Source of the DNA: Alphaproteobacteria bacterium | GTDB lineage: Bacteria > Pseudomonadota > Alphaproteobacteria > CACIAM-22H2 | Direction: 5' to 3' | DNA: 34,977 nt | Assembly (NCBI GenBank): GCA_016869915.1 | Contig: VGDA01000002.1 | Location: forward strand, 1 to 34,977 | In this document: piece after piece, positions 1,123-34,977 of the stretch | How the letters are laid out: each line of letters starts with the position of its first letter | Numbering within the stretch: position 1 is the stretch's first letter | Notes under the pieces: model-generated | Told to the model about the DNA's origin: nothing | Databases searched by the model: none | The model's input: the letters and a program-made list of their open reading frames with translations, nothing else | Program-made: the position numbers and the translations under genes

Positions 1123-1925
1123 GCCAGACCTTCACCATCTTCCGGCGCGAGTTCGCGGGCTATTTCGCGACCCCCGTCGCCTATGTCTTCCTCGTGATGA
1201 CCTTCACCATCTTCCGGCGCGAGTTCGCGGGCTATTTCGCGACCCCCGTCGCCTATGTCTTCCTCGTGATCTTCCTGGTCTTCGCGGCGACGCTGACCTT
1301 CCAGCTCGGCAACTTCTTCGAGCGCGGCCAGGCCGACCTCGCCTCGTTCTTCATGTGGCATCCCTGGCTCTACCTGTTCCTCATCCCCGCGATCTCGATG
1401 CGGCTCTGGTCGGAGGAGCGCAAGCAGGGGACGATCGAGCTCTTCCTCACCCTGCCGATCGGCCTCGGCCAGGCGGTCCTCGGCAAGTTCCTCGCCGCCT
1501 GGGCCTTCACCGGCGTCGCGCTGGCCCTGACGTTCCCGATCTGGCTCACGGTCAACTGGCTGGGCACGCCCGACAACGGCGTGATCCTCTCGGGCTACGC
1601 CGGAAGCCTGCTGATGGCCGGCGGGATCCTCGCGATCGGCGCCTGCATCTCCGCGACCACCAAGAACCAGGTCATCGCCTTCGTCGTGACGGCGGCGGTC
1701 GCGTTCCTGTTCACGGTCAGCGGCACCGCCGTGGTGCTCAACTTCTTCTCGGGATGGGCGCCGGAGTGGTTCACCGAGGCGATCAGGTCGTTCAGCTTCC
1801 TGACGCATTTCAACGCGATGAACCGCGGCGTCATCGACATCAAGGACGTGTTCTTCTTCTCCAGCCTGATCGCGCTCTTCCTGTTCGCGAACGCGATCGT
1901 CGTCGACATCAAGAAGGCGGGTTGA
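1119..1925 (+). CDS. ABC-2 type permease (GldF-like); carries an in-frame 72-bp tandem duplication near the N-terminus
   Basis: ATG at 1119 inside the 135-1925 ORF frame. Multi-pass hydrophobic protein starting MSQTFTIFRREFAGYFATPVAYVFLV. The 24-aa segment TFTIFRREFAGYFATPVAYVFLV(M/I) occurs twice in tandem. Translationally coupled to the ATPase. Confidence 0.8.
   Translation: MSQTFTIFRREFAGYFATPVAYVFLVMTFTIFRREFAGYFATPVAYVFLVIFLVFAATLTFQLGNFFERGQADLASFFMWHPWLYLFLIPAISMRLWSEERKQGTIELFLTLPIGLGQAVLGKFLAAWAFTGVALALTFPIWLTVNWLGTPDNGVILSGYAGSLLMAGGILAIGACISATTKNQVIAFVVTAAVAFLFTVSGTAVVLNFFSGWAPEWFTEAIRSFSFLTHFNAMNRGVIDIKDVFFFSSLIALFLFANAIVVDIKKAG
1127..1270. repeat. Tandem duplication, 72 bp x2, identical (in-frame, ABC-2 permease)
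   Basis: 1127-1198 equals 1199-1270 base for base. No spacer and no flanking microhomology. Confidence 0.97.
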
Positions 1926-1929
1926 CCCA

Positions 1930-3876
1930 ATGAGCATGCCCGGTTCCTCCCTCCAGCGCGGCGGCTTCGCCGCCCTCGCCCTCGCCCTGGCTGTCGCGGC
2001 GTTCTTCGGCTCGAACATCGCGGTCGACCGCGCGGCCAACGGAATGCGCGCCGACCTCACGCAGGAGAAGCTCTTTACCCTCTCGCCCGGCACGCGCAGC
2101 CTGCTGTCGAAGATCGAGGAGCCGGTGACGCTGCGGCTCTACGTGTCGGAGCGGCTGACGCGCGAGATCCCCTCCTACGGTACCTACGCGACGCGGGTGC
2201 GCGAGCTGCTGGAGGAATACAAGGCAGCCTCCGCCGGCAAGGTCCGCCTGATGTTCGTCGACCCGCAGCCCTTCTCGGACGAGGAGGAGCGCGCCGTCGC
2301 CACGGGAATCCAGGGCGTGCCGGTCAACCAGTCCGGCGAGCAGGTCTATTTCGGCATTGCCGGCTCGAGCAGCGGCGACAAGGAGGCGGTGATCCCGTTC
2401 CTGCAGCCCGAGCGCGAGAGCTTCCTCGAGCACGACCTCACCAAGCTCGTCTTCGAGCTGACCGTCACGAAGAAGCGCGCGGTCGGCCTGCTGACCACCC
2501 TGCCGCTGCAGGGCCAGTTCATGGGCCCGCGCAACCCGCCGCAGCCCTGGGCGATCCACGACCAGCTGTCGCAGCAATTCGACCTCCAGCGCATCGACCG
2601 CGACGCCGCCGTCATCCCCGAGACGATCGACGTGCTGATGGTCGTGCATCCGCGCGAGCTGCCCCCCAGGACGCTCTACGCGATCGACCAGTTCGTGCTG
2701 CGCGGCGGCCGCGCGCTCGTCTTCGTCGACCCGCATGCCGAGGGGGAGATGGGTCGCCCGGGCCCCGCGGCGCAGAGCGGGCAGACCGGCTCCGACATGC
2801 CCGAGTTGCTCAAGGCCTGGGGCGTCGAGCTCGTCCAGGGCAGGATCGCCGGCGACCGCCAGGCCGCGCGTCGCGTCAGCGCCGGGGCCGGCCAGCGCGT
2901 CCAGGCCGTCGACTACCTCGCCTGGCTGTCGCTGCGCGACGCGGCGCTGTCCAAGGGCGACGTGCTGCTCGCTGACGTTCAGTCCATCAACATGGCGAGC
3001 GCGGGCATCCTGCGCCCCGTCGCCGGCTCGGGCGTCGCCATGACGCCGCTCATCAGCACCTCGGAGCAGGCGCAGGAGATCGACGTCGAGAAGGTCAAGT
3101 TCGCGCCCGATCCCGTGGCCCTGCTCTCGGGCTTCAAGTCCGGCGGCGAGCGCCTGGTCCTCGCGGCACGCCTGCGCGGCCCCGCGAAGACTGCCTTCCC
3201 CGACGGCGCGCCGAAGGAGGAGAAGAAGGAAGGCGAGGCGGAGGCCGCCAAGCCAGACGCCCCCGCCCTGCCCGCGCATCTCGCGGCCTCGCGCGACCCG
3301 ATCAACGTCATCGTGGTCGCCGACACCGACATGCTCGAGGACAGGTCCTGGGCCCAGGTGCAGGAGTTCTTCGGCCAGCGCCTCGTGCGGCCGGTCGCGA
3401 ACAACGGCGACTTCGTCGTCAACGCGGTCGACCACCTCGGCGGCAGCGACGACCTGATCTCGCTGCGCTCGCGCGGCCAGTCGACACGGCCCTTCACGGT
3501 CGTGCAGGAGATCCAGCGCCAGGCCGAGCTCTCCTTCCGCTCAAAGGAGCGCGAGCTGACCGAGAAGCTGAAGGCAACCGAGGCGAAGCTCAAGGAACTG
3601 CAGACCAAGGAGCAGGGCGAGGGCGCGGCGCGCTCGATCGTCACCGCGGGCCAGCAGCAGGCGATCGACCAGTTCCGCGCCGAGATGCTGGAGACGCGCC
3701 GCGAGCTGCGCGAGGTCCAGTACAACCTCAACCGCGACATCGACCTGCTGCAGGCCTGGGTGCGCGCGGTCAACATCGCCCTCATCCCCGCCCTGATCGG
3801 CCTGTTCGCCGTGGCGCTCGGGCTGGCGCGCGTCGCGCGCCGGCGCCGGGCAGCCGCCGCGCGCGCGACCGCCTGA
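1930..3876 (+). CDS. GldG-family ABC-transporter auxiliary component
   Basis: 648-aa ORF starting 4 nt after the permease stop. Has an N-terminal TM (FAALALALAVAAFFG), a large soluble region, a coiled-coil-like KERELTEKLKATEAKLKELQ segment and a C-terminal TM (ALIPALIGLFAVALGLA). This architecture and its position after the ATPase and ABC-2 permease are as recalled for GldG homologues. Confidence 0.7.
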   Translation: MSMPGSSLQRGGFAALALALAVAAFFGSNIAVDRAANGMRADLTQEKLFTLSPGTRSLLSKIEEPVTLRLYVSERLTREIPSYGTYATRVRELLEEYKAASAGKVRLMFVDPQPFSDEEERAVATGIQGVPVNQSGEQVYFGIAGSSSGDKEAVIPFLQPERESFLEHDLTKLVFELTVTKKRAVGLLTTLPLQGQFMGPRNPPQPWAIHDQLSQQFDLQRIDRDAAVIPETIDVLMVVHPRELPPRTLYAIDQFVLRGGRALVFVDPHAEGEMGRPGPAAQSGQTGSDMPELLKAWGVELVQGRIAGDRQAARRVSAGAGQRVQAVDYLAWLSLRDAALSKGDVLLADVQSINMASAGILRPVAGSGVAMTPLISTSEQAQEIDVEKVKFAPDPVALLSGFKSGGERLVLAARLRGPAKTAFPDGAPKEEKKEGEAEAAKPDAPALPAHLAASRDPINVIVVADTDMLEDRSWAQVQEFFGQRLVRPVANNGDFVVNAVDHLGGSDDLISLRSRGQSTRPFTVVQEIQRQAELSFRSKERELTEKLKATEAKLKELQTKEQGEGAARSIVTAGQQQAIDQFRAEMLETRRELREVQYNLNRDIDLLQAWVRAVNIALIPALIGLFAVALGLARVARRRRAAAARATA

Positions 3877-3898
3877 CGCCGCACCGGAGCAGAGCGAC

Positions 3899-4960
3899 AT
3901 GCGCAACGCCACCACCCTCACCCTGCTCGCCGGCGCCGCCATGGCGAGCGCCGTCGTCGCGTACCTGCTCGCGCCGGCGGGAGACCCGGCGGAGATACGG
4001 CTCGGCGAGCGCATCTTCCCCGAGCTCGCCGGCCGTGCCGCGGAGGTCGCGACCATCGAGATGCAGCGCCCCGACGGGCCGGTGGTGATCCGGCGCGAGG
4101 GCGAGCGCTGGATCCTGCCGGAGTCCGCCGGCTACCAGGCGGACGGCGCGCGGATCCGCCAGCTCTTCTTCGAGGTGTCCGAGCTGCGCACGCTCGAGGC
4201 CAAGACCCGCAGCAAGGATGTCTATCCGTCCCTCGAGCTGGAGGACCGCGACGCGCCGGGCGCGAAGTCGACGCGCGTCGCCTTCCGCGACGCGCAGGGC
4301 AAGGAGGTCGTCGCGCTGCTCGCCGGCAAGAACCGCTTCGGGCGCGGCGGCGGCGGCGAGGACGCGGTCTACGTGCGTCGCGCGGGCGACGCGCAGGCCT
4401 GGCTCGCGCGCGGCCGCCTCACGGTCGGCCGCGACGCGCTGCAATGGATGGAGCGCGAGGTGGCGAATGTCGCGCGCGAACGCGTGCGCGTCGCCACGAT
4501 CCGCCACGCCGACGGCGCGACCACCGAGGTCTCGAAGCCGTCGCCCGCCGAGCGCGACTTCGTGCTCGCCGGCGTCCCGGAGGACCGCAAGCCGAAGTCG
4601 AACTGGGAGATCGGGAGCGTCGCAGCGGTGTTCGAACGCCTCGACCTCGAGGACGTGCGCAAGGCCGAGGGCTTCCCGGCAGGCGGCACCGTGGCTACGG
4701 TCTCCACCTTCGACGGGCTCGAGGTGTCGGCCCGGCTGGTGGAGATCGAAGGTGTGTTCTGGGCCGCGATCTCGGCCCGCGCGGAGCCCCCGGCGCAACT
4801 GCCGGAAGGCGGCACGGGCCTCAAGGCGGCGGACGAGGTGAAGGCCGAGGCGGACGCGATCTCCCGCCGCGCCGCGCCCTGGATCTACCGGCTGCCGATC
4901 TTCAACCTCGAGAACATGCGACGCAAGGTCGATGACCTGCTGGAGGCGAAGGAGGGCTGA
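3899..4960 (+). CDS. DUF4340-like membrane-anchored protein
   Basis: 353-aa ORF with a single N-terminal TM (TLTLLAGAAMASAVVAYLLA). Lies directly downstream of the GldG-like gene, where I recall DUF4340 proteins commonly sitting. No catalytic motif recognised. Confidence 0.5.
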   Translation: MRNATTLTLLAGAAMASAVVAYLLAPAGDPAEIRLGERIFPELAGRAAEVATIEMQRPDGPVVIRREGERWILPESAGYQADGARIRQLFFEVSELRTLEAKTRSKDVYPSLELEDRDAPGAKSTRVAFRDAQGKEVVALLAGKNRFGRGGGGEDAVYVRRAGDAQAWLARGRLTVGRDALQWMEREVANVARERVRVATIRHADGATTEVSKPSPAERDFVLAGVPEDRKPKSNWEIGSVAAVFERLDLEDVRKAEGFPAGGTVATVSTFDGLEVSARLVEIEGVFWAAISARAEPPAQLPEGGTGLKAADEVKAEADAISRRAAPWIYRLPIFNLENMRRKVDDLLEAKEG

Positions 4961-4970
4961 GCCCTCCTTC
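4948..4970. terminator. GC-rich hairpin between convergent genes (10-bp stem, 3-nt loop)
   Basis: gaaggagggc (4948-4957) pairs perfectly with gccctccttc (4961-4970). The loop tga is the stop codon of the upstream gene. No clear U-tract on either side. Confidence 0.4.
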
Positions 4971-4987
4971 CGCCCGGCGGTGGCTCC

Positions 4988-5452
4988 TCAGGCGGCGCCC
5001 GCCACGCGCATGGTCACGATCTTGTCGGGGACGCGCGGCGGCTCTCCGCGCTTGATCGCGTCGACATGCTCCATGCCCTCCACGACCTCGCCCCAGACCG
5101 TGTACTGGCCGTTCAGGAACGAGCCCTCGTCGAACATGATGAAGAACTGGCTGTCAGCGCTGTCGGGGTTCTGGCTGCGGGCCATGCCGCAGGTGCCGCG
5201 CACGAAGGGCTCCCGGCTGAACTCGGCGCGCAGGCGCTTGCCCGAGCCCCCCATCCCGCTGCCGGTCGGGTCGCCGCCCTGGGCCATGAAGCCCTCGATG
5301 ACGCGGTGGAACACGATGCCGTCGTAGAAGCCCTCGGTGGCGAGTTCCTTGATGCGGGCGACATGGTTCGGCGCGAGGTCGGGCCGCAGGCGGATGACCA
5401 CGCGGCCGCTCGCGAGGTCCATCCACAGCGTGTTGGCGGGATCCAGGGCCAT
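4988..5452 (-). CDS. ppiB: Peptidyl-prolyl cis-trans isomerase, cyclophilin type (cytoplasmic)
   Basis: Cyclophilin motifs FHRVIEGFMAQGGDP and ...GQYTVWGEVVEGM. I prefer the ATG at 5450-5452 because AAGGAG lies 8 nt upstream; the ORF track's GTG at 5461 is the alternative. Confidence 0.9.
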   Translation of the reverse strand: MALDPANTLWMDLASGRVVIRLRPDLAPNHVARIKELATEGFYDGIVFHRVIEGFMAQGGDPTGSGMGGSGKRLRAEFSREPFVRGTCGMARSQNPDSADSQFFIMFDEGSFLNGQYTVWGEVVEGMEHVDAIKRGEPPRVPDKIVTMRVAGAA

Positions 5453-5457
5453 TGCGC

Positions 5458-6116: not shown

Positions 6117-6121
6117 GGGCG

Positions 6122-7109: not shown

Positions 7110-8138
7110 ATGGGCAGGACGATCCTGGTGACCGGCGGTGCCGGCTATGTCGGCAGCCACTGCGTGGCCGCGCTGCTCGAGGCCGGCCACCGCGTGGTCG
7201 TCTTCGACAACCTGCACCAGGGCCATCGCGAGGCCGTGCTCCCGCAGGCGGAACTCGTGGTCGGCGACCTCGCCGACCGCGACGCGATCGCCGCCGCCTT
7301 CGCCGGCCGACGCTACGATGCGATCATGCATTTCGCCGGCAACATCCAGGTCGGCGAGTCGATGCGCCGCCCCTTCCTCTATCTCGGCGACAACGTGCAG
7401 TGCGCGGTCAACCTGCTCGAGGCAGCCGCCGCCCATGGCGTCTCGCGCTTCGTCTTCTCCTCGACCTGCGCGATCTTCGGCGCCACGGGACGCGCCTCGA
7501 TCGATGAGGACGCGCCGGTCGCGCCGGAGGACGCGCCGGTCGCGCCGGGCAGCCCCTATGGCGAGTCGAAATACCTCGTCGAGCGCATCCTCGCCTGGGC
7601 CGAGCGCGTCCACGGCATCCGCTATGCGATCCTGCGCTACTTCAACGCCTGCGGCGCGCATCCCCACCTGCCGCTCTTCGAGGACCACGACCCGGAGACG
7701 CATCTCATCCCGATCGCGCTCGACTGCGCGCTGGGACGCCGCGAGGAGATGCAGGTCTTCGGTAACGACTACGACACGCCCGACGGCACCTGCCTGCGCG
7801 ACTACGTCCATGTCTGCGACCTCGCGGCGGCGCATCTGCGCGTCCTGGACCGGCTGGACGCGGGCAGCCGCGCCTACAATGTCGGCAGCGGCAACGGGCA
7901 CTCGGTGCGCGAGGTCCTCGACGCCGTGCGCCGCGTGACCGGGGTCGACTTCCCCGTGCGCATGCTGCCGCGACGGCCGGGGGACCTGCCGCGGCTCGTG
8001 GCCGACCCGTCGCGCATCCGCGCCGAGCTCGGCTGGACGCCCCGCTACGCATCGATCGACGAGATCGTCTCCACGGCCTGGCGCTGGCGCCGCGCCCATC
8101 CCGGCGGCTACGCCGAGCTGGCGCGCGCGCGAGGCTGA
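7110..8138 (+). CDS. galE: UDP-glucose 4-epimerase; carries an in-frame 21-bp tandem duplication
   Basis: ILVTGGAGYVGSH Rossmann motif and catalytic SPYGESKY (YxxxK). ATG at 7110 is preceded by aagga. EDAPVAP is repeated twice immediately before GSPYGESK. Confidence 0.9.
   Translation: MGRTILVTGGAGYVGSHCVAALLEAGHRVVVFDNLHQGHREAVLPQAELVVGDLADRDAIAAAFAGRRYDAIMHFAGNIQVGESMRRPFLYLGDNVQCAVNLLEAAAAHGVSRFVFSSTCAIFGATGRASIDEDAPVAPEDAPVAPGSPYGESKYLVERILAWAERVHGIRYAILRYFNACGAHPHLPLFEDHDPETHLIPIALDCALGRREEMQVFGNDYDTPDGTCLRDYVHVCDLAAAHLRVLDRLDAGSRAYNVGSGNGHSVREVLDAVRRVTGVDFPVRMLPRRPGDLPRLVADPSRIRAELGWTPRYASIDEIVSTAWRWRRAHPGGYAELARARG
7506..7547. repeat. Tandem duplication, 21 bp x2, identical (in-frame, galE)
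   Basis: gaggacgcgccggtcgcgccg occurs at 7506-7526 and 7527-7547. Confidence 0.95.
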
Positions 8139-8148: not shown

Positions 8149-9741
8149 TCAGGCTGCGCTTGCGCCGCCCCCGTCGCGCAGGCTGCGACGCAGCACCTTG
8201 CCCATCGAGTTGCGCGGCAGCGCCGCCACGAACCGGATCTCCTTCGGCGCCTTGTAGCGCGACAGCGACGCGCGGCAGGCCTCGACGAGGTCAGCCTCGC
8301 CCGCGTTCATGCCCTCGCGCAGCGCGACGAAGGCCGTCACCGCCTCGCCCCAGTAGGGATGCGGCAGGCCGACGACGGCGCATTCGCGCACGGCCGGGTG
8401 CGCGAGCAGCACCTCCTCGACCTCGCGCGGATAGACGTTCTCGCCGCCGGTGATGATCATGTCGTTCTTGCGGTCGACGAGGTAGAGGAACCCCTCGTCG
8501 TCCATGCGCGCGAGGTCGCCGGTCACGAACCAGTCGCCGCGCATCGCCTTCGCGGTCGCCTCGGGCATGTTGAGGTAGCCGGAGAACATGTAGGGCGAGG
8601 TGCAGGCGAGCTCGCCCACCTCGCCGCGGGGCAGTTCCGCGCCATCCTCGCCCAGGATCATGACCTGCGTGGCGGGAAGCGGCTGGCCGACGCACTGGAT
8701 CTTGCGGAGCTGGTCGGCGGGGCGCAGCGCGGTGACGATCGACGTCAGCTGGTCGGCGGGGCGCAGCGCGGTGACGATCGACGTCTCCGTGCAGCCATAG
8801 CGCTCGTAGAGCCTGCCCTCGCCGAAGAAGTCGATCACGCGCTCCTTCGTCGACTGCGCGAGCGGCGCGGTGCCCGAGACGACCGCCTTGAGCGACGACA
8901 CGTCGTAGCGCCGCGCGGCATCGCCCATCGCGAAGAGCGCCGCGAAATGCGTCGGCACCATGTAGGTGTTGGTCGCGCGGATCGACTGGATCGTGTCCAT
9001 AATCCGCTCGATGTCGAAGCGCGGCAGCAGCTCGACGAAGCCGCCGAAATGCAGCGGCGTCAGCGTCATCAGGAAGCCCGCGCCATGGAAGAGCGGCGTC
9101 AGCGTGATGGCGCGGTCGTCGGGACCGTAGCAGCCATGGTCGGCGCCGATCGCATAGGCGGAGAGAACGCGCCCGCGATGCGAGAGCATCACGCCCTTGC
9201 CGCGGCCGGTCGAGCCGGAGGTATAGGGGATGGAGAAGACGTCGCTCTCCTGCGTAGGCACCGGGCAGGTCGCGTCCGAGGCCCGCGCGAGCGCGTCCTC
9301 GTAGGCGTCCGACAGCACGACGACATGCGCGACGCAGTCCGGCAGCGCGGCGCGCGCCTTCGCCTCGAGCGAGGGATCGACGAAGATCGCGCGCGCGCCC
9401 GTGTCCTCGCACGCGAAGCGTATCTCGGCCTCGGACGCGGCCGGGCCGATCGTCGCGCAGGCGACGCCCGCGAGCGACGCGCCGCAGACGATCTCGATGT
9501 ACTCGACGCGGTTGGGAAGCAGGACGACGACGCGCTCGCCATGCGCGAGGCCCAGCCCCGCATGGACGAGGTTGGCGACGCGCCTGATCCTCTCGGCAAG
9601 GCGCGCATAGGTGAGACCGCGCCCGCTCTCGCGTATCGCGAGGCGGTCGGGTGTGCGTCGTGCCGCGGACAGGATCCCGTCGGAGATCGTGATCCCGCGC
9701 GAATTCCCCGGCCGCCGCGTCCGCAGGTCCCCGGCGCTCAT
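8149..9741 (-). CDS. AMP-dependent acyl-CoA synthetase/ligase; carries an in-frame 39-bp tandem duplication
   Basis: AMP-binding motifs YTSGSTGRGKGV, YERYGCTE and TGDLARMDDEGFLYLVDRKNDMIITGGENVYPREVE. The likely start MSAGDLR at 9739-9741 overlaps the upstream gene's stop (ATGA). TSIVTALRPADQL is repeated twice. Confidence 0.88.
   Translation of the reverse strand: MSAGDLRTRRPGNSRGITISDGILSAARRTPDRLAIRESGRGLTYARLAERIRRVANLVHAGLGLAHGERVVVLLPNRVEYIEIVCGASLAGVACATIGPAASEAEIRFACEDTGARAIFVDPSLEAKARAALPDCVAHVVVLSDAYEDALARASDATCPVPTQESDVFSIPYTSGSTGRGKGVMLSHRGRVLSAYAIGADHGCYGPDDRAITLTPLFHGAGFLMTLTPLHFGGFVELLPRFDIERIMDTIQSIRATNTYMVPTHFAALFAMGDAARRYDVSSLKAVVSGTAPLAQSTKERVIDFFGEGRLYERYGCTETSIVTALRPADQLTSIVTALRPADQLRKIQCVGQPLPATQVMILGEDGAELPRGEVGELACTSPYMFSGYLNMPEATAKAMRGDWFVTGDLARMDDEGFLYLVDRKNDMIITGGENVYPREVEEVLLAHPAVRECAVVGLPHPYWGEAVTAFVALREGMNAGEADLVEACRASLSRYKAPKEIRFVAALPRNSMGKVLRRSLRDGGGASAA
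8708..8785. repeat. Tandem duplication, 39 bp x2, identical (in-frame, acyl-CoA synthetase)
   Basis: agctggtcggcggggcgcagcgcggtgacgatcgacgtc occurs at 8708-8746 and 8747-8785. Confidence 0.95.
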
Positions 9742-9800
9742 GGTGCGAGGAAGCGCGCGATGGCGGCCGCGCGCTCGTCGGCGGAGCCCGGGCGCTCGAC

Positions 9801-9822
9801 GACCGCATGGCGACCGCATGGC
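9801..9822. repeat. Tandem duplication, 11 bp x2, identical (frame-breaking, 3' end of the double hydrolase gene)
   Basis: gaccgcatggc occurs at 9801-9811 and 9812-9822. Confidence 0.85.
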
Positions 9823-10660
9823 TCATCGCCGACGCGGCGCCATCGAGGCAGGGCGCGTGGATGTCGTCCGGCGCGGACAGCAGCAGCGTCGGCCGGTCCG
9901 GCAGCTCCGCCATGCGCTCGCGCAGCGGGTAGGACATCACGGCCTCCCAGGTCGGCGCGTAGCCACGCGGATGCTTGAGCATCTCGCGCGCCCTCAGCGT
10001 CAGCGAGGCCGGGTCGATGCGCGGCGCGGTCCTGCGTGCGTTCTCGCGCCGCCGGTCGTGCCAGGGCTGCCAGAGCTCCTGGTCGCGCAGGTGGTGCCAG
10101 GCTCGCAGCAGGTGCGTGCCGTCCATCTCCGGCGCGGCCGAAGGAGCCGGCACGGACAGGAGCGCGGCGCGCGCGACGGGGTCGAGCGCGGGCGGACCGT
10201 CGAAGGCGACGCGCCGGAAGCGTGCTGGCGCGCGGCGCAGGAGCTCGACGGCGAGCACCGCGGAGCCCCCGCAGGCCAGCAGGTCGAAGACCGGCGCGTC
10301 ATGCGCACCGAGCGCGCCGAGCAGCGCCGAGCAATATCCGTCCCAGCGCTGCGCGGCGTCGCCGGTGGCCGGGCGGGACTGGCCATGGCCGGGCAGGTCG
10401 AAGCCGAGCACGCGCCTGTCGCGCGCCAGCTCCGACATCAGTCCCTCGACCAGCGCCGTCGAGCCCGGCAGCGGATGCAGGCAGAGCAACGGCGGCTCGC
10501 CGATGCGCGCGGTGCCGCCGCTGCGCATGAACAGCGGCCCCTGCGGTCCATTCGCGTAGTCGGTGACGAGCCGACCGGCGATCGGCGCGCAGGCGGGCGC
10601 CGGAGGCGGCACGTCGCCGAGATGGCGCGAGAGCAGGTCGCGCTCGCGCACCGTCGCCGA

Positions 10661-10772
10661 GACCGGGTCGCGCGGCGTCTCCTCCAGCCACGCGCCGGTT
10701 CCGTCATAGGCGGGCTGACCGGGTCGCGCGGCGTCTCCTCCAGCCACGCGCCGGTTCCGTCATAGGCGGGCT
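10661..10772. repeat. Tandem duplication, 56 bp x2, identical (frame-breaking, linker of the double hydrolase gene)
   Basis: gaccgggtcgcgcggcgtctcctccagccacgcgccggttccgtcataggcgggct occurs at 10661-10716 and 10717-10772. Confidence 0.97.
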
Positions 10773-11151
10773 TCGTGCGATGGAGGCTGTCGCCCGGCCG
10801 CACCGCGAAGCAGACCGGCACCTTGAGGTCGGCGAGCACGCCGAGCCCTCGGCCACGGAACGCAGCCGCATAGCCGACGCGGTACTCGTCGCCCGCGTCG
10901 AGCAGGTCGATGACGCCCTGGTGGAGGAAGTCCGCATCGGGCACGTCGGTGTCCGCGCGATGCGCGAGGTCGTGGTCGTGCCACGGCCAGAAGACATGCT
11001 GCTCGCGATAGCGGTACCAGAGCCAGAGCAGGTGGCTGCCGTCCCATTTCGGCACGAGCGGCTCGAGGTAGCGCTTGAGCCGGTCCTGCGCCTGCGCGCC
11101 CGAATAGGCGGGATAGCCGTCGGCGAGCGCCATGGCGCAGCGATCGGGATG

Positions 11152-11457
11152 GCGCGCGGCGAACTCGACGGCGATCGCCGCGCCGGTGTGGTTGCCGTAG
11201 ACCGCGGCGCGCCCGATGCCGAGCGCGGTCAGCGTCTCGGCCATCGCGTCGGCGAAGTCCCGGATCTCCGGCTGGGCGATGTCGAGGCGGTCCGACAGGC
11301 CGAAGCGGGCCGCGAACTCGACCGCGATCGCCGCGCCGGTGTGGTTGCCGTAGGCGGCGGCGCGCCCGATGCCGAGCGCGGTCAGCGTCTCGGCCATCGC
11401 GTCGGCGAAGTCCCGGATCTCCGGCTGGGCGATGTCGAGGCGGTCCGACAGGCCGAA
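11152..11457. repeat. Tandem duplication, 153 bp x2, 5 mismatches (in-frame, 51 aa, first hydrolase domain)
   Basis: 11152-11304 versus 11305-11457. Mismatches at 11155/11308, 11158/11311, 11170/11323, 11201/11354 and 11203/11356. The peptide FGLSDRLDIAQPEIRDFADAMAETLTALGIGRAA(A/V)YGNHTGAAIAVEFAAR occurs twice. Confidence 0.95.
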
Positions 11458-11636
11458 GCCCGGCGTGTCGAAGGCGAGCGCGGTGAAGCGCGTCGCGAAG
11501 ACCTCCTGCTGCATGCGCATGCGCGCCGCCGAGCAGGGCGAGGGATGGAAGAGGCAGACCGCGGGGCCCGACCCGGCGCGCGTGTAGTGCACGCGGCGCT
11601 TGCCGACGGTGACGAAATGGCTGGTGACGCGCGTGC

Positions 11637-13193
11637 TCATGCCGGTCCTCTCCCCTCCCCTGCCGCCCCGAGGCCGAGCACGCCGGGATTCATCCGGCCG
11701 CCCGGGTCGAGCGCGAGCTTGATGCGATGCGCCAGCGCGGCGGCGGCGGGATCGAGAGCCTCCGCGTAGCGATAGAAGCGCCCGAGCTGCGCGTGGACCG
11801 CGCCATGCGCGTCGAGCGCGTCGCGCATGGCCTCGCGCAGGCGCCGCGCGAGCGCGCGTCCCGACGGGTTCGCGGCGAAGGCGCCGAAGCGCGCGCGGTT
11901 ACGCCCGGACATGTGAGCGAGATGGATCGGGTCGAGCGCGTCGGGCCAGTAGAACATCGGCTCGATCGTGACATGCGGCCCGGTCGAGGCGACGAGCCAG
12001 TTCACCGCCATCCCCGCGTCGTCGAGCGCCGCGCGCTCGGCCTCCGCCATCGCCTCGAGCGCGGCAAGGGCCGCGGCGGCGCGCGACAGCGGCAGGATGC
12101 CGTGCACCGGCACCCAGCGCTCGCCCTGCGGCCCGACCATGCCGCGGATCGAGAAGGGCCGCGCGCGCAGGGTGCGCGGGACCACGGCATCGACCTCGCG
12201 GCCCGCGGCGCAGTAGCCACGCACGGCCTCGATGCGCTCGGCCGCGGCGCGCTCGCTCTCCGCCTCGGCCGTGACATGCAGCGACCATGGCGCGTCGTCG
12301 CCGCCGCCAAGGCCAGCCTTCGCGAGGCGCGCCGCGTCGCGCAGCGCCTGGACCGGCGACGTGGCGGCGGCGACCACGGCGCCCAGCGTGCGCGCGGCCT
12401 CGCCCGCGTCGAGGCTGCGCGCGCCCTCCGACCTCAGCCGGTCGAGCGCGAAGGCGCGCGTCGCGGCGCCCGCGCGCATCGTCGCGACCATCGCCTCCGC
12501 GATGTCGCTGCCGCGCGCGAAGGCGAAGGACGCGAAGGCGGCGGGCCGCTCCGGCACGAGGCGCAGCGCGAGCTCGGTCTTGATGCCGAAGGCGCCGCAA
12601 TCGCCGAGGAACAGGCCGGTCAGGTCCGGCCCGTGATGGCGCCAGGACCCCTCGCCGCCCGGCTGCGCGAGCGCGCCGGCGCGCGCGAGGCTGCCATCCG
12701 CCAGCACCGCCTCGACGCCGATGAAGCCCTCCATCGAGCCGGGAAGGTTCTGCGACGCCGCGCCGCCGATGGTGGAGTGGCTGCCGCTGATGGGCGCCGC
12801 GACCGCCGCGCGCAGGCCGTGGCGCGACGCGGCCTCGGCCAGCGCCTCCCAGGTCGCGCCCGCGCCGACGCGCGCGCGCAGGTCGCCGGCATCGATCGAG
12901 ACATGGTCGAGCCGCCGCGTGTCGAGCACCGCGACGCGCGGTGCATGCGGCACGGCGCCGCCGGTATAGGAAAGCCCGGCGCCACGCGGCACGACCGAGA
13001 AGCCAGCGGCGGCGAGCAGCCGCACGGCCTCGGCTGCCTCGGCCGCGGAGCCGGGGCGCAGCAGGAGGTCCGGCGGCACCGCGCCCGGCCACTCGAAGAC
13101 GTCGGATCCGGCGAGCGCCAGTTCGGCCGGATCGCGCGATACATGCGCCTCGCCCAGCGCGGCCGCGAGCGCGTCGCGCAGCGCCGCGCTCAT
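11637..13193 (-). CDS. FAD-binding oxidoreductase (PCMH-type FAD_binding_4 / GlcD-like)
   Basis: Starts MSAALRDAL at 13191-13193 inside the longer 723-aa ORF. Has VVPRGAGLSYTGG and GPDLTGLFLGDCGAFGI motifs typical of FAD-linked oxidases. ATGA overlaps occur at both ends (13190-13193 and 11637-11640). Confidence 0.8.
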   Translation of the reverse strand: MSAALRDALAAALGEAHVSRDPAELALAGSDVFEWPGAVPPDLLLRPGSAAEAAEAVRLLAAAGFSVVPRGAGLSYTGGAVPHAPRVAVLDTRRLDHVSIDAGDLRARVGAGATWEALAEAASRHGLRAAVAAPISGSHSTIGGAASQNLPGSMEGFIGVEAVLADGSLARAGALAQPGGEGSWRHHGPDLTGLFLGDCGAFGIKTELALRLVPERPAAFASFAFARGSDIAEAMVATMRAGAATRAFALDRLRSEGARSLDAGEAARTLGAVVAAATSPVQALRDAARLAKAGLGGGDDAPWSLHVTAEAESERAAAERIEAVRGYCAAGREVDAVVPRTLRARPFSIRGMVGPQGERWVPVHGILPLSRAAAALAALEAMAEAERAALDDAGMAVNWLVASTGPHVTIEPMFYWPDALDPIHLAHMSGRNRARFGAFAANPSGRALARRLREAMRDALDAHGAVHAQLGRFYRYAEALDPAAAALAHRIKLALDPGGRMNPGVLGLGAAGEGRGPA

Positions 13194-14158: not shown

Positions 14159-14222
14159 ACCCCCTTCCCCGCCGCGCGGATCTGGACGACCCTTCGCGCC
14201 GGAGAACAGCGAGGGCAGGCAC

Positions 14223-27854: not shown

Positions 27855-28491
27855 ATGCGCTTGCGCCCAGCCTCCGCCGCCATCGCCCTCGCGGCCACGG
27901 CCTTCCTCGTGCTCGCGGCACCCGCCCCGCCATGGCGGGAAATCCGCTCGACGACTCGGCTGCCTGCGCCGGCTCCCTGATCGGCAACGCCACGGCGGAT
28001 CTCTCGCAGGGGCGCGAGGACCGGTTCGACGAGGGCGTCGACCTCGCCTATGCCGGCTACCTCACCCATGTCTTCGCGGCCAAGGGCGCGTACAAGCAGG
28101 CCGACCTCGAGCTCGCCGACAAGATCCTCGCCATCAACACCGACCGCGTCATCTCTCGCAGGGCCGCGAGGACCGCTTCGACGAGGGCGTCGACCTCGCC
28201 TATGCCGGCTACCTCACCCATGTCTTCGCGGCCAAGGGCGCGTACAAGCAGGCCGACCTCGAGCTCGCCGACAAGATCCTCGCCATCAACACCGACCGCG
28301 TCATCGAGGCCGCGAATTCCAATGCCTTCGACGCCGAGGTCTACGAGCAGATCGTCGCCTGCTCGCAGTTCCTCGCGCTCCAGGTCATGCGCAACGCGGC
28401 CGTCTACGCCGACAACGCCAAGCGCATCGCCGCGCTCTCGGCCGACAACAAGAACCGCATCCGCAGGCTGGTGAAGGCCGGCCGCCGCTGA
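27855..28491 (+). pseudogene. Hypothetical (probably secreted) small protein; disrupted as written by a 152-bp tandem duplication and possibly a 1-nt indel after the signal peptide
   Basis: ATG at 27855 has a strong aggaga SD and encodes signal-like MRLRPASAAIALAATAFLVLAAPAP, but this frame stops at about 27980. The mature part MAGNPLDDSAACAG...DRFDEGVDLAYAGYL... starts at 27932 in another frame with no SD. It then shifts frame again at the 152-bp repeat and finishes in ORF 27781-28491. Confidence 0.45.
27999..28302. repeat. Tandem duplication, 152 bp x2, 2 mismatches (frame-breaking, hypothetical secreted protein)
   Basis: 27999-28150 versus 28151-28302. Mismatches at 28012/28164 (ggg/ggc) and 28024/28176 (cgg/cgc). 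Confidence 0.97.
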
Positions 28492-29538: not shown

Positions 29539-29548
29539 GGCTCGCTCC

Positions 29549-30721
29549 TCAGTTGACGCGATGCGCGCGGATGAAGTCCTCGTCGACGCCGACGCCGATG
29601 CCGACCGCGTCCGGGATCGCGACGGTCCCGTCCGCCTCGAGGCGGAAGGGCTGCGTGGTGATCCCCCGCGTGAGCAGGCTCTGGCTGACGTTGAACTCGA
29701 CGAAGCGCGCGCGCGGCAGGGTTGCGAGCAGTTGCAGGCTGTAGCCGGTCAGCAGGTGCGTGAGCCAGGAATGCGGCACGAGGTCGATGCCCGCCTCCTG
29801 CGCGAGCTGGGCCACGCGCCGGGCGACCGTGATGCCTCCGCAGCGCGACAGGTCCGGCTGGACCACGTCGACGCAGCCCTGCCGGATGAAGCGCTCGAAC
29901 TCCCAGTGCGTCGCGACCTGCTCGCCCGCGGCGATCGGCACCGGCGAGTTGGCGCGCACCCAGGCATATTGCTCGAAATCCTCGGGATGGATGAAGTCCT
30001 CGACCCAGCCGACGCCGTGGGCGGCGAGCCACTCGCACATGGCCAGGGCCTCGCGCCGCGAGCGCGGCTCCCCCCAGCGCTTCCATCCCGCCGGATACCA
30101 GCCGGGATCGACGAGCAGCGCGCGATCGGGCCCCAGCGCCTCGCGCGCGGCGGCGACGAGCTCGCGGTCGCGGCCGGGATCCTCGCCGAACACGCCCCAG
30201 CCGAACTTCACGGCGCGGAAGCCCCGCGCGACATAGCCAAGCGCCGCCTCGCGCATGCCGTCGGGCGTCTCGCGGAACAGCGTCGAGGCATAGGCGACCA
30301 CGCTTTCGCGGCGCCTGCCGCCGAGCAGCGCGGCCAGCGGCATGCCTGCCGCCTGCGCGCGGATCGACCAGAGGCAGTTGTCGATCGCCGACATGCACTG
30401 CATGGCAAGGCCGCGGCGACCGTAATAGGCGCTGCCCACGTACATGCGGTCCCAGAGCCGCTCCACTTGCAGCGGATCCTCGCCGACCAGCATCTCGGAG
30501 AGCGTGCGGAAGCCGAGGATCGACATGCCCTGCCCGGCGATCACCGCGACCGCGGCCGGCGCGAGCGTCTCGACATCGGCCCAGCCGACCAGTCCCTCGT
30601 CGGTCGCGACGCGCACGACGAGCTGCCAGTCGCCGTTGTCGCTCGCCTCCTCGCCGCCGGCGGAGGCGCCATAGCCCTGCTGGCCGCGCAGCAGGATCGG
30701 CTCCACCGCGACGATCCTCAT
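29549..30721 (-). CDS. Enolase-superfamily enzyme (mandelate racemase / muconate lactonizing enzyme family)
   Basis: Start MRIVAVEPILL at 30719-30721 (ATGA overlap with the upstream gene). Shows a capping-domain plus barrel pattern with LLVDPG, WVEDF, AAGEQ and DVVQPDLSRCGGIT motifs. Confidence 0.8.
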   Translation of the reverse strand: MRIVAVEPILLRGQQGYGASAGGEEASDNGDWQLVVRVATDEGLVGWADVETLAPAAVAVIAGQGMSILGFRTLSEMLVGEDPLQVERLWDRMYVGSAYYGRRGLAMQCMSAIDNCLWSIRAQAAGMPLAALLGGRRRESVVAYASTLFRETPDGMREAALGYVARGFRAVKFGWGVFGEDPGRDRELVAAAREALGPDRALLVDPGWYPAGWKRWGEPRSRREALAMCEWLAAHGVGWVEDFIHPEDFEQYAWVRANSPVPIAAGEQVATHWEFERFIRQGCVDVVQPDLSRCGGITVARRVAQLAQEAGIDLVPHSWLTHLLTGYSLQLLATLPRARFVEFNVSQSLLTRGITTQPFRLEADGTVAIPDAVGIGVGVDEDFIRAHRVN

Positions 30722-32139
30722 GGCGCCGGCGACGCCATCATGAGGTCCGAGGCGAGGCGCACCGCCTCGCGCGTCAGCGCAGCTGCCGCCTCCGGCGCAT
30801 AGGGCGTCGCCCACTCCACCTCGTAGCCGCTGGAGCGGAAATCCTCGGCGTTGGGGACGTAGCCGTCCCAGCCATTGGTGTAGCCGCCGAAATGCAGGAA
30901 GGGCGCGGCGTCGGAGGCGCGGATGTCGGCGCCGATGCGCGCGAAGGGCTCGAGCGGCGCGCCAACGAGCACCGCGTCGCCGATGCGCGTGGCGTGCAGC
31001 TCGATGTCGACCGCGCGGCGATTGGCGCAGAAACGGCCCCAATGCGCGCCCATCTGCGCGCGCTTGGCGCGGAAATTGGCGGCCGCGAGCTCCGCCGGCG
31101 TGGCGACCGAGCGGTCGATGGCGCGCACGGCCGCGGTCGCGGCCTCGGACTGCGCGTCTAGCTCGTCGACGTCGCCATAGGCGCGCACGGGCAGCGCGAT
31201 GCGGCGGCTCTCCACGGCGAGGACCTGGGGCGCGGAAGGCAACTCGTCGTCGACCCAGATGCCGAGCGGCGCGCCGGACTCGACGACATGGTCGAAGCGC
31301 TTGCGGATCCGGCGCGTCGAGAGGCCGATGGCGACGCGCGCGGCGTCGAGGCCGATCTCCGTGCCCATGCGCCGCGGCGCGTCACGGTCGGCGACCAGGG
31401 CCTCGCGCGGGATCTGGTCGCCCGCGCAGCCCTGCAGGAAGAGGCAGTGCCCGCCGACGGACTGCTCGACGATGCGCTTGAGATGGCCGGGATAGTCGGG
31501 GCTCACGAGGCGGTTCCCGTGCGCGAGCACGATCGGATGGGTCCCGTATCCGACGATGGTCGCGATCGGCCGGCCGTCGAGCGCGTCGATCCTGAGGACG
31601 CTGAGGACGGGGTCGCGGTATCCGTCCCAGTTCTGCGACACGACCACGCGTCCGTCGGGAAGCGCGAGGCGGCGGTTCACCGTCACCTCGCTGCGCCCGT
31701 AGCCCGAGGCGCTGCGCGCCGGGCGCAGCGCGGCGCGAGCGGCGCGCGCGGCCTCGCGCAGCGCGTCGAGCACCTTCGCGCGATAGGCGGGCACGAGCTC
31801 CATGCCGGGAAGCTGCGCCTGCGTGCCGAAGCCATGCGTCGCCCAGGGCGGCCCGGAATGCGTGTGGGTGAAGGACAGCCGCACATGCTCCGGCGCGAGG
31901 CCGAGCTCCTCGCCGACCACGGCGCGCAGCTCGCGGCTCTCCTCGCTCGACATCAGCAGGAAGTCGAGGTCGACGATCGACGCGCGCACGCCGCCCTGCT
32001 CGAGCAGCAGGATCGTGGCCAGCAGCGGCAGGTCGATGCCCTCCGCGCGGTCATGCGTGCGCGCGCCCCAGTTGACATGCGCGATCCCTATCGGCGGCGT
32101 CATGTCCGCGCGGCCGGCGCCGGCCATGAGATGCGTCAT
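30718..32139 (-). CDS. Neutral/alkaline ceramidase-like N-terminal-domain hydrolase
   Basis: Start MTHLMAGAGRADMTPPIG at 32137-32139 with GGAGG upstream. FTHTHSGP and LQGCAGDQIP motifs resemble the neutral ceramidase zinc site. This is the C-terminal part of the spurious 1401-aa ORF. Confidence 0.6.
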   Translation of the reverse strand: MTHLMAGAGRADMTPPIGIAHVNWGARTHDRAEGIDLPLLATILLLEQGGVRASIVDLDFLLMSSEESRELRAVVGEELGLAPEHVRLSFTHTHSGPPWATHGFGTQAQLPGMELVPAYRAKVLDALREAARAARAALRPARSASGYGRSEVTVNRRLALPDGRVVVSQNWDGYRDPVLSVLRIDALDGRPIATIVGYGTHPIVLAHGNRLVSPDYPGHLKRIVEQSVGGHCLFLQGCAGDQIPREALVADRDAPRRMGTEIGLDAARVAIGLSTRRIRKRFDHVVESGAPLGIWVDDELPSAPQVLAVESRRIALPVRAYGDVDELDAQSEAATAAVRAIDRSVATPAELAAANFRAKRAQMGAHWGRFCANRRAVDIELHATRIGDAVLVGAPLEPFARIGADIRASDAAPFLHFGGYTNGWDGYVPNAEDFRSSGYEVEWATPYAPEAAAALTREAVRLASDLMMASPAP

Positions 32140-33935
32140 GGCGTCCTCCCCTTCTTCTTCTCGCGTGCCATCCTTGCCAGTGGCAGGACGAGGTCGTCGG
32201 GCGTCGTGCAGGGCGTGGCGCCCGCCGCGGCGATGTCGGCCGAGACGTCCACGGGCAGCGACGTGTTCGAGTTCTGCGGCACCTGGTTGAGGCGCCCACC
32301 GATGAAGACGGGGATCTGCAGCCCGGCCTCGCGCATTGCCGCGCGCAGCGCCTGCATGTAGTCGAGGGCGACACCGTTGTAGGTCGAGAGCGCGATCGCG
32401 TCGGCCCGGCTCGCGCGCGCCTTCGCGACGAGGTTCGCCGGGTCCGCATGCACGCCCGCGTCGACGATCCCGACGCCGACGCCTCGCAGGATCTCCTCGA
32501 TCAGGATCTTCCCGTATTCGTGGACGTCGGTGCAGGCGACGACCGCGCTCAGGCCGGCGCCCGAGAGGTCCGCGCGCATCGCCGGATCGAAGCCGCGGAT
32601 CTTCTTCTCGGCGGCGCGGGCGAGCGCCGTCATCGTCGTCGAGGGTACGTACGGCCTGCGCCCGCGTGGCGCCGCCGCGTCCTCGACGCCCGGCCCGTAG
32701 AGCTCCTCGAGGCGCTTCGGGCCGATGCGCCGGATGGCGAGCAGGAGCTCGAAGGCGTCGTCGGTGCGGATGCCGGCCTCGCGCAAGCCGGAGAGCACGC
32801 GGTCGCGGAAGCGCTCGCCGCCGGCGACGATCGCGTCGGCGATGGCGTCGGTGCGCGGCAGGTCGACCATCGGCAGCCAGAGCTCCGACTGCTCGACGAG
32901 CTTGGCGCAGACGAGCTGGACGTCGATCACCTCGTCGATGTCGGGGATGCGCACGCCCTCGGTGATCGGCACGGGATTGATCGCGTGGCCCGAGGGCATC
33001 AGCCGCTGGCCCAGCGCGTCGGCGAGCAGGTAGGCGCTGAGCCCGCCGTAGTTGGAGACGCGGTCGGCCTCGTAGACCACGGTGTTGCCGTAGATCATCG
33101 TGCCCGGCACCGCCTCGCGGCCGCGCGCCAGCGCGCGCTGGAAGGCAAGCCGCGTCGCCGGGTCGGTGAAGGTGTTGCCGAAGCAGTGCGAGAGGCGCCC
33201 GCCGAGCAGGTCCTCGACGACATGGCGCTCGAGCAGCGCGGCGCCGAACGTGCAGGACAGGTCCGTGAAGAGCGGCGCGAAGCCGTCGAAGCCGTCGTCG
33301 AGGTTCGAGTGGATCAGCACCTCGACCGGCTGCGCGGCCATGAGCGCCAGCGCCTCGACCGTCGCCTCGGTCGTCGCGACGTCGTCGTGCCACTCGGGAA
33401 GGCGGAAGGTGAAGTACTGGCCGAGATTGCCGACCGATGTCGCGCCGGCGGCGAGCGCGGCGACGGTGTTCTCCACCGCCGAGGGCATGCCGATCACGAA
33501 GTCCCCGAAATGCGGGGCCACCGGTGCCTCGGAGGTGAGCGCGACGAAGTCCTCGACGCCCTCGAGGATCATGCCGGTGCCGCGCCCGCGCTCGGCGCGG
33601 CTGGCGGCGGGATGGCCCATCGACCAGTCGAGGCAGATGCCGTAGCGGTCGACGCGCAACCCCTGGCGGTCGAGCGCGTTCCAGATCTCGAACCACGCGC
33701 GGCGGCTCTTCGACTTGTCCCGGAAGCCGATCTGCGCGTGCTGCATGATCGCGCCCCCGGCCATGCGCCTGCGCTTGTACTCGGCCTCCGAGGGCACGTC
33801 GTGGTGGGACAGGAACCTGCCGCGCGCCACCTGGGCGACGCGCGCGAGCGCGCGGCCGCGCGCGACGACCTCGCCGCAATCCGGCAGCGCGGCCTCGGGC
33901 AGGACCTCGGCGCGCGCGAGGGGACGGGCCGCCAT
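32136..33935 (-). CDS. Fused cobalamin-dependent mutase-like protein (N-terminal glutamate-mutase-E-like barrel plus C-terminal B12-binding domain)
   Basis: 599-aa ORF. The C-terminal ~138 aa carry the canonical B12 motifs DVHEYG (DxHxxG, 32511-32528), LSTYNG (SxL-like) and VFIGGRL (GG). The N-terminal ~430 aa show patchy resemblance to the glutamate mutase epsilon subunit by recollection (AIMQHAQIGF, GMILEGVEDF, AAGATSVGNLGQYFTFRLP). Confidence 0.65.
   Translation of the reverse strand: MAARPLARAEVLPEAALPDCGEVVARGRALARVAQVARGRFLSHHDVPSEAEYKRRRMAGGAIMQHAQIGFRDKSKSRRAWFEIWNALDRQGLRVDRYGICLDWSMGHPAASRAERGRGTGMILEGVEDFVALTSEAPVAPHFGDFVIGMPSAVENTVAALAAGATSVGNLGQYFTFRLPEWHDDVATTEATVEALALMAAQPVEVLIHSNLDDGFDGFAPLFTDLSCTFGAALLERHVVEDLLGGRLSHCFGNTFTDPATRLAFQRALARGREAVPGTMIYGNTVVYEADRVSNYGGLSAYLLADALGQRLMPSGHAINPVPITEGVRIPDIDEVIDVQLVCAKLVEQSELWLPMVDLPRTDAIADAIVAGGERFRDRVLSGLREAGIRTDDAFELLLAIRRIGPKRLEELYGPGVEDAAAPRGRRPYVPSTTMTALARAAEKKIRGFDPAMRADLSGAGLSAVVACTDVHEYGKILIEEILRGVGVGIVDAGVHADPANLVAKARASRADAIALSTYNGVALDYMQALRAAMREAGLQIPVFIGGRLNQVPQNSNTSLPVDVSADIAAAGATPCTTPDDLVLPLARMAREKKKGRTP
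33279..33296. repeat. Tandem duplication, 9 bp x2 (in-frame DGF-DGF in the B12 protein); may be natural
   Basis: gaagccgtc occurs at 33279-33287 and 33288-33296. It is short enough to be a native sequence feature. Confidence 0.5.
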
Positions 33936-33938
33936 GCC

Positions 33939-34977
33939 TCAGAACCGCGAGCCGGTCGCCGGCACCGGCCCGATCCTGAATCCCTCGGGCAGCGGGTCGT
34001 CGTGGTCCAGGACGAAGTTGTGGAAGCCCGTGATCCAGGCCCGGCCCTCGACCCGTGGCACGACATAGGTGATGCCGCCGCGCGTCTCGGCGCGGATCGG
34101 CGTGCCGGTGAAGTACGTGCCGAGCACGCCCTCGAAGCGGCGCGACTGGCCGAGCGCGATCTCGCCGCGCCCGTGCAGGAGCGCGGTGCGCGCCGAGGTG
34201 CCGGTGCCGCAGGGGCTGCGGTCGAGCGATCCCGGCGGGCAGAGGATCGTCTGCCGGTAGTCGCCCGTCGTCGTGCGCGCCGAGGTGAAGAGCACCTGGT
34301 AGCAGACGTCGATGTCCGGACGCTCCGGATGGACGACCTTCAGCTGCTCGCCGACCGCGGCGCGGATGCGCCGCCAGGCGGAGATCAGCGCCGCGTCGTT
34401 GTGCGGGCTCAGCTCCAGGCCGATCGCGTCGGCGTCGACGAAGCAGTAGAAGTCGCCGCCATAGGCGATGTCGACGAGGATGCGGCCGATGCCCTCCACC
34501 TCGAGCGGCGCGGCGCGCATGAGCTCGAAGCTCTCGACGTTGTCGAAGTACGTTGTCGAAGTAGACGGAGCGCGGCGCGCCGCCGGAGACCCGCACGTGG
34601 CAGGTGACGAGGCCGGCCGGCGTGTCGAAGCGCACCACCGTCTCGGGCTCGACGACGGGCACCATCCCGGTCGCGACGACGGTCGTCGCCGTGCCGATGA
34701 TGCAGTGGCCGCACATCGGCACGTACTCGTCCTGCTCCATGATGACGACGGAGAAATCCGCGCCCGGGCCCTGCGGGGGCAGGAGCAGGACCGAGCACAT
34801 CATGCCGCTGCCGCGCGGCTCGAAGTTGAGCATGCGTCGCAGCGCGTCGTCGTTGCGCCAGAGCCAGGCGCGCTTGTCGAGGAGCGTCGCGCCGGGCGGG
34901 ACCGGGACGCCACCGACGATCACGCGCGTCGGGTTGCCCTCCGTGTGGGAGTCGACGGTGTTGATGGTACGCCGGAA
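33939..34977 (-). pseudogene. Proline racemase family enzyme (Cys/Cys type: proline racemase or 4-hydroxyproline 2-epimerase); 5' end outside the window; frame broken as written by a 13-bp tandem duplication
   Basis: The N-terminal part (...TINTVDSHTEGNPTRVIVGG...EYVPMCGHCIIG...RSVYFDN) is the head of ORF 30718-34923. The C-terminal part is ORF 33939-34520 (...LDRSPCGTGTSAR...). Catalytic Cys codons are at 34711-34713 and 34209-34211. Confidence 0.85.
34538..34563. repeat. Tandem duplication, 13 bp x2, identical (frame-breaking, proline racemase family gene)
   Basis: cgttgtcgaagta occurs at 34538-34550 and 34551-34563. Confidence 0.9.

Follow-up and report, generated by a model that had tools for sequence, protein, structure and literature searches.

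Thirteen spacer-less tandem duplications in one alphaproteobacterial metagenome contig are most likely not biological

Short stretches of DNA that stand twice in a row, head to tail and with nothing between the copies, can arise in several known ways, both in the cell and in the computer. This text concerns thirteen such duplications on a single contig of an uncultured alphaproteobacterium, VGDA01000002.1 of GenBank assembly GCA_016869915.1. The contig was analysed over its full length of 34,977 nucleotides, and this whole stretch is called the window. The duplications were first described from the bare sequence (here called the sequence-only reading). Comparison with other contigs of the same population indicates that they are most likely not biological. 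They are probably joins made while one metagenome scaffold was being built, and not mutations of a living lineage.

One known source of such duplications is an overlap between two contig ends that is left unmerged. These negative gaps are met in scaffolding, gap closing and assembly merging. They resemble what is seen in the window in having two copies and no spacer, in being insertions only, in having a unit bounded by the read or k-mer scale, in being private to one assembly, and in carrying minor-variant bases at the ends. The window differs in that there are no Ns at its joins, that its unit lengths fit no single k, and that four of its joins are fully blunt. The presumed pipeline is metaSPAdes, and the literature searched does not document that it leaves overlaps of this kind.

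Living cells can reach the same form when a staggered break is filled in and then bluntly ligated. Ku/LigD end joining, the target-site duplications of transposases and the duplications made by paired nickases are all of this type. They too have two copies, no spacer and no microhomology, and blunt, spacer-less two-copy junctions are indeed what the window contains. In paired-nick and fill-in systems, the ends of a duplication are set by the positions of the two nicks. A target-site duplication is short, of one set length, and found on both sides of an element or of its footprint, whereas the window has thirteen lengths, from 9 to 153 bp, and nothing between the copies. A real mutation would show itself in reads or by recurring in other samples of the lineage, and none of the thirteen is found in the other contigs of the population. 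That thirteen independent end-joining events took place within 35 kb of an otherwise unchanged lineage is implausible.

Slipped-strand and microhomology-mediated duplication likewise produces short head-to-tail duplications inside genes. For slippage, the boundaries must carry direct repeats of at least 2-8 nt, and deletions are a usual by-product. The window has no deletions, and its junction microhomology is that expected by chance.

Form and number of the duplications

Tandem Repeats Finder (TRF) and an exhaustive scan for exact periodicity were run on the window. Together they recovered all thirteen head-to-tail pairs at the positions where the sequence-only reading had placed them, each with exactly two copies and no spacer. 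The units measure 9, 11, 13, 21, 26, 27, 39, 40, 56, 72, 141, 152 and 153 bp. Three of them cluster at 141-153 bp, and 153 bp is the maximum.

In ten of the thirteen pairs (units of 72, 21, 39, 11, 56, 40, 26, 27, 9 and 13 bp) the two copies are identical. The copies of the three longest units are not: copy 1 and copy 2 differ at five positions in the 153-bp pair, and at two positions each in the 141-bp and 152-bp pairs. The sequence-only reading had missed this, together with three other things that are described below: a clustering of strain-type substitutions at the junctions, the presence of three duplications in one hydrolase gene, and a 1-bp deletion at 27921.

Periodicity continues for 0-4 nt past a pair on the right and for 0-1 nt on the left. 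Added together, the two sides give 0-5 nt; the mean is 1.4, where 0.8 is expected by chance at this base composition. Junction microhomology is at chance level. At four junctions there is no extension at all, and these are perfectly blunt.

The density of duplications is far above chance. In a comparison set of 803 kb, made up of related and unrelated loci, exact tandem duplications with two copies and units of at least 19 bp are absent, and there is only one multi-copy array of a 15-mer. The 35-kb window has seven exact and three near-exact duplications with units in that range. The units of 9, 11 and 13 bp fall within the size range of chance pairs, and these were confirmed as insertions by comparison with near-identical contigs.

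The reference contigs share two more exact two-copy repeats, of 9 bp at 31592-31609 and of 10 bp at 10314-10333, which are native and stand outside the anomaly.

When all differences between the window and the reference contigs are enumerated, the thirteen duplications stand against no deletion longer than 1 bp (sign test p = 2e-4). There are also no inverted junctions among these differences. The segments between junctions are 0.4-6.3 kb long, and the shortest, of 905 and 588 nt, lie between the duplications in the gene for a 560-aa alpha/beta hydrolase. The positions of the junctions show no association with local GC content, which was used as a proxy for coverage dropout.

GA is over-represented at the 5' ends of these duplicated segments. 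If both strands are considered, 10 of the 26 ends start with GA, where 1.8 would be expected (p = 5e-6). Six of these read GAC, and the context is often GAY|GA.

Near-identical contigs and the public record

Relatives of the window were gathered by exact-protein look-ups and one metagenome scan. This led to more than 30 contigs with 98-100% identity to the window. At least 16 other samples contributed to this set. Most of the contigs are from the 24 Lake Tanganyika metagenomes, and the rest are from sample 3300017788, an ENA assembly made with MEGAHIT, Logan, and metagenome-assembled genomes (MAGs) at NCBI. The contigs belong to the same uncultured alphaproteobacterial population, and jointly they cover every base of the window.

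In alignments with these near-identical relatives, the relatives are single-copy at all thirteen sites. The sequence-only reading had suggested asking whether orthologues in close relatives are single-copy, and they are, throughout. Its main inference, that such a density of gene-breaking duplications is unlike a selected chromosome, is upheld. The more distant relatives L001 and L016, which are 84-91% identical, are also single-copy wherever they overlap the window. The closest named relatives are MAGs of uncultured Rhodospirillales and Acetobacteraceae, at 80-91% DNA identity. A search of a plasmid collection gave only distant gene-level matches and no close relative.

Apart from the duplications and the private variants described below, the window is essentially the same as intact relatives. 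There are long stretches without any other difference from the relatives, for example 1199-5293, 11306-14885 and 30201-34977. Flanking genes, and the unaffected parts of the damaged genes, are identical to those of intact relatives.

Sister contigs of the same organism from Lake Tanganyika are 1.2-7.6 kb long, which is similar to the length of the segments between junctions. In sample 3300017788, adjacent contigs can be seen to overlap at their ends. The end of L047 and the start of L063 share exactly 11 nt (around 30201-30211 in the window), and the end of L054 and the start of L057 share 38 nt (5414-5451) with one mismatch, at 5427. Overlaps like these may be the raw material: if such ends were concatenated, duplications of the observed kind would result. 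The contig breaks of 3300017788 were themselves considered as the source of the junctions and rejected; they lie at about 5414-5451, 14885, 19482 and 30201, and miss the junctions.

Exact protein look-up also established where the duplicated forms are on record. The window corresponds to the whole of a public contig, 34,977 bp long, which exists in JGI/IMG and as a contig of an NCBI MAG. Five proteins that carry a duplication in frame were looked up (268, 342, 530, 407 and 599 aa). All five are on record, each on one contig only, which is the one of 34,977 bp. All five come from JGI/IMG and four of the five from NCBI too, while none is found in Logan or ENA assemblies. The single-copy counterparts of 244, 517 and 596-597 aa occur on 27-72 contigs, from NCBI, JGI, ENA and Logan.

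Per protein, the contrast is as follows. The ABC-2 permease has 268 aa on one contig, against 244 aa on 72, 47, 25 contigs and more. The 342-aa form of the GalE-like epimerase is on one contig only. For the acyl-CoA synthetase it is 530 aa on one contig against 517 aa on at least 27; the gene calls also differ, with JGI/IMG listing 530 aa and NCBI 556 aa, from an upstream start. The B12-binding protein has 599 aa on one contig, and 596-597 aa on at least 43. The 407-aa form of the ABC ATPase is on one contig, has a 90% cluster of which it is the only member, and is present in NCBI nr; its relatives have 360 aa. The suspected artefact has propagated into protein databases, of which this ATPase is an example.

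The window also carries single-base variants that are private to it, and these gather near the junctions. Within 160 nt of a junction lie 14 of the 20 private variants (p = 2e-9), or 7 of 13 if they are counted as clusters (p = 3e-4). About 13 of the 15 substitutions near junctions and at the contig end are at third codon positions, and nearly all are synonymous (p = 3e-5).

In two cases, the variant is the base immediately preceding copy 1: a synonymous C>G at 8707, before the 39-bp duplication (8708-8785), and a C>A at 10660, before the 56-bp duplication (10661-10772). The 153-bp event (11152-11457) is richer. Its copy 1 has six variant positions relative to the references within its first 52 nt (11152-11203), of which five are synonymous and at third codon positions, while 11201 is a second-position change from A to V. 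The G at 11152 is repeated at the first base of copy 2, which is why the copies differ at only five positions, and the rest of copy 2 equals the reference. Under an alternative phasing, 11152 becomes a private allele just before the duplicated segment, making it the third such case with 8707 and 10660. Three alleles of this copy 1 are common to the 91% relative L016. In the 141-bp event (21869-22150) it is copy 2 that has private synonymous third-position changes, at 22024 and 22066, and in the 152-bp event (27999-28302) copy 2 has private G>C changes at 28164 and 28176.

At the left end of the contig, compared with two otherwise identical contigs, positions 1-609 of the forward strand hold four private differences: substitutions at 47 (G>C), 228 (G>C) and 609 (G>T), and an additional A at 141. 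This A is just upstream of the ribosome-binding site of an ABC ATPase gene, and 228 and 609 are synonymous within that gene. In the roughly 4 kb after position 609 there are no private differences. Elsewhere, isolated private synonymous transitions are found at 16704 and 22653.

The substitutions near junctions look like natural alleles of a co-occurring strain, rather than polymerase or sequencing noise, because they are at third positions, nearly all synonymous, and in some cases common to the 91% relative. Swaps between G and C make up 11 of the 15 junction-proximal and contig-end substitutions, and they were considered as a non-biological error signature. This idea was dropped: the sites are third-position and synonymous in a genome where the GC content at third positions is over 90%, and polymorphisms between sister contigs are of the same kind.

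How the duplications may have arisen

The sequence-only reading had offered three causes, namely an assembly or consensus artefact, a very recent mutational burst, and deliberate or simulated editing. The first is now best supported, the second is disfavoured, and the third is refuted by the public record.

If the duplications are joins, as is probable, the 34,977-bp contig would be a chain of about 14 shorter pieces from one alphaproteobacterial population, probably with low coverage. Neighbouring pieces would share 9-153 nt of the genome where they meet, and at every join the two overlapping ends would have been written consecutively, unmerged. This leads to two copies, no spacer, no microhomology, insertions only, and a unit that is capped near the read length. 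The ends of the pieces would rest on few reads, partly from a co-occurring strain, which is proposed as the reason that strain-type synonymous alleles are found in and beside the copies.

The Lake Tanganyika metagenomes consist of 2x150 nt reads with an insert of about 240 bp, assembled with metaSPAdes 3.12 (PMC8245535). We infer that the contig has low coverage and stems from a metaSPAdes assembly of such 2x150 reads. The largest unit of 153 bp can be set against reads of 150 nt, where that read length is the project's and the contig's own origin there is likely rather than recorded. An assembly or scaffolding step as the cause is deduced from the privacy of the duplications to one contig, the single-copy relatives, the restriction to insertions and the clustering of alleles. 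Seen in these terms, the duplications occur in one assembly only, they are gains whose size is bounded near the read scale, and minor-haplotype bases stand at what would be the ends of pieces.

Several observations weigh against assembly joins as the cause. A lack of read support at the junctions is something we infer. The k-mers across a short duplication cannot be created by an assembler that works purely on a de Bruijn graph. Either the joining was done in a step outside the graph, or there were reads that truly contained the duplications. The four junctions with zero overlap are not what a scaffolder with a minimum overlap of 1 nt would produce. The unit lengths match no single k-mer size. 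The GA bias at the 5' ends of duplicated segments (10/26) is weak at true contig ends (6/40) and is not accounted for by the joins. No such duplication occurs in the sister contigs, which total about 130 kb and were for the most part produced by the same pipeline, and the fault would then be specific to this scaffold or sample. Finally, a literature search for an assembler artefact of this sort found no paper that describes the fault.

Two more specific computational sources were tried and rejected. Units of 21, 39 and 141 are in the default k list of MEGAHIT, and an exact stretch of 126 nt suggests a k of 127, but no k or list of k fits all thirteen. The junction coordinates, once collapsed, have no 500-bp period of the kind that a polishing window would leave. 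As a candidate origin of the GA ends, a bias in where reads start was considered as well; true ends of sister JGI contigs start with GA in 6 of 40 cases, a weak signal.

The alternative that the duplications are real is unlikely. It would involve a very recent burst of tandem duplication in one lineage, either through staggered breaks with 5' overhangs that were filled in and bluntly ligated (Ku/LigD-type), or through template switching in break-induced replication along these 35 kb. Two copies, no spacer and chance microhomology are, as is generally known, the outcome of fill-in and blunt joining; the GA or GAC bias at segment ends could reflect a nick-site preference; and a graph assembler normally does require reads that contain the short duplications. 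Yet the burst would be confined to one contig among dozens of the same population, with none of the thirteen events in any other contig, on a backbone that is otherwise identical to that of intact relatives. The density extrapolates to about 1,900 events in a genome of about 5 Mb, where hundreds of genes would be broken. The duplications come without deletions, there is no biological reason for a cap near the read length, and what stands at the junctions is synonymous natural alleles rather than errors of repair. A narrower variant would account for those alleles too. In it, staggered breaks occurred in a local burst, with nicks preferentially at 5'-GA(C), and were filled in and joined bluntly, while repair copied in short allele patches from a strain living alongside. 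We regard this variant as very unlikely.

It is also conceivable, though unlikely, that the lesions were made in vitro, as chimeras from whole-genome or polymerase chain reaction (PCR) amplification of a low-input sample, that were locally dominant and then faithfully assembled. This would reconcile read support with lesions that are not biological, and where templates are mixed, amplification can bring together alleles of different strains close to a switch point, in agreement with the patches of alleles seen at the junctions. Chimeras from displacement amplification are mostly inverted, as is general knowledge, and the window has no inverted or deletion junctions. Forward jumps, which give deletions, would be expected as often as backward ones. 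In addition, the methods of the Lake Tanganyika study mention no amplification (PMC8245535). The pattern does look designed, with random positions and roughly log-spread lengths, and might suggest that the window was edited or simulated after retrieval from the public record. Given that five of five tested duplication-bearing proteins were already public on the 34,977-bp contig, this is refuted, and its probability is next to nothing.

If the duplications are an artefact, a scaffold that is present in both IMG and an NCBI MAG carries thirteen false insertions, and these lead to false pseudogenes and false protein variants. Counts of pseudogenes, indels and structural microdiversity in such MAGs would then mislead. 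Such cases would be flagged by screening for repeats with two copies, no spacer and a unit no longer than one read. If on the other hand the duplications are real, a wild bacterium would have gone through a burst of clustered, end-joining-type duplications without precedent, which the evidence does not favour.

The sites and their genes

Gene calls were transferred to the window from near-identical contigs, and Pfam was used for families. As the sequence-only reading had it, twelve duplications are in genes and six units are not multiples of three; the twelve are spread over ten genes, and the 27-bp duplication is intergenic. Five genes have an in-frame insertion (permease, epimerase, acyl-CoA synthetase, ABC ATPase and B12-binding protein). 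The other five are frameshifted by their duplications (hydrolase, acyl-CoA dehydrogenase, short-chain dehydrogenase, 161-aa protein and proline racemase).

From left to right, the exact 72-bp pair at 1127-1270 adds 24 aa in frame near the N-terminus of the ABC-2 permease (1119-1925, + strand), and is single-copy in L053, L054 and the 84% relative L001. The exact 21-bp pair at 7506-7547 adds 7 aa in frame to the GalE-like epimerase (7110-8138, +), with a single copy in L057-L061. The 39-bp pair at 8708-8785, also exact, adds 13 aa in frame to the acyl-CoA synthetase (8149-9741, -), where L057-L059 are single-copy.

The gene of the 560-aa alpha/beta hydrolase (9738-11640, -) has 3 of the 13 duplications within 1.7 kb. 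An exact 11-bp pair at 9801-9822 shifts the frame near its 3' end (single-copy in L057 and L058). The exact 56-bp pair at 10661-10772 is the second lesion (single-copy in L057, L058 and L070), and the 153-bp pair at 11152-11457 the third, with single copies in L057, L058, L070 and L016.

Further along, frameshifts are caused by the exact 40-bp pair at 15031-15110 in the acyl-CoA dehydrogenase gene (14223-15432, +; single-copy in L037 and L070-L072), and by the exact 26-bp pair at 16802-16853 in a short-chain dehydrogenase gene (16624-17423, +; single-copy in L037, L038, L070 and L071). The intergenic 27-bp pair, which is exact, occupies 19993-20046 and ends 28 nt upstream of the start of a solute-binding-protein gene (20074). 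Alignments of L038-L040, L042-L044 and L047 have one gap at this site, which is listed as a 27-bp insertion for L038, L039 and L047. The 141-bp pair at 21869-22150 adds 47 aa in frame to the ABC ATPase (21308-22531, +), and L039, L047-L050 and L052 have a single copy.

The gene of a secreted hypothetical protein of 161 aa (27855-28491, +) is frameshifted by the 152-bp pair at 27999-28302, for which L047 and L067 are single-copy. It has a second lesion, which is a private 1-bp deletion at 27921 (+) in a run of C (CCCC to CCC), 229 nt from the 152-bp junction and absent from the near-identical L047 and L067. The resulting frameshift parts the signal peptide from the remainder of the protein.

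The last two sites are single-copy in L063. An exact 9-bp pair at 33279-33296 adds 3 aa in frame to a protein with a B12-binding domain (32136-33935, -), and an exact 13-bp pair at 34538-34563 shifts the frame of a gene of the proline-racemase family (33939 to about 34960, -).

The window as a whole has a GC content of about 71%. Its gene content starts with an ABC-2 type transporter cluster (ATPase, permease, GldG-like auxiliary protein and DUF4340), and includes a peptidyl-prolyl isomerase, a LuxR-type response regulator and the GalE-like epimerase. Then there are the acyl-CoA synthetase, the 560-aa alpha/beta hydrolase, an FAD oxidase and an amidohydrolase, as well as the acyl-CoA dehydrogenase, an alanine dehydrogenase, the short-chain dehydrogenase, a class-III aminotransferase and an HMG-CoA lyase. 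A polyamine-type ABC importer is also encoded, as are a second hydrolase, a cupin, an amidase, the secreted 161-aa protein, and AstE/AspA-like and MR/MLE enzymes. A ceramidase-like protein, the B12-binding protein and the proline racemase homologue complete the set.

The transporter cluster at 157-4960 is made up of four genes, for the ABC ATPase, the ABC-2 permease, the GldG-like ABC_transp_aux protein and the DUF4340 protein. Their stop and start codons overlap, and the arrangement is conserved in the 80-84% relative L001.

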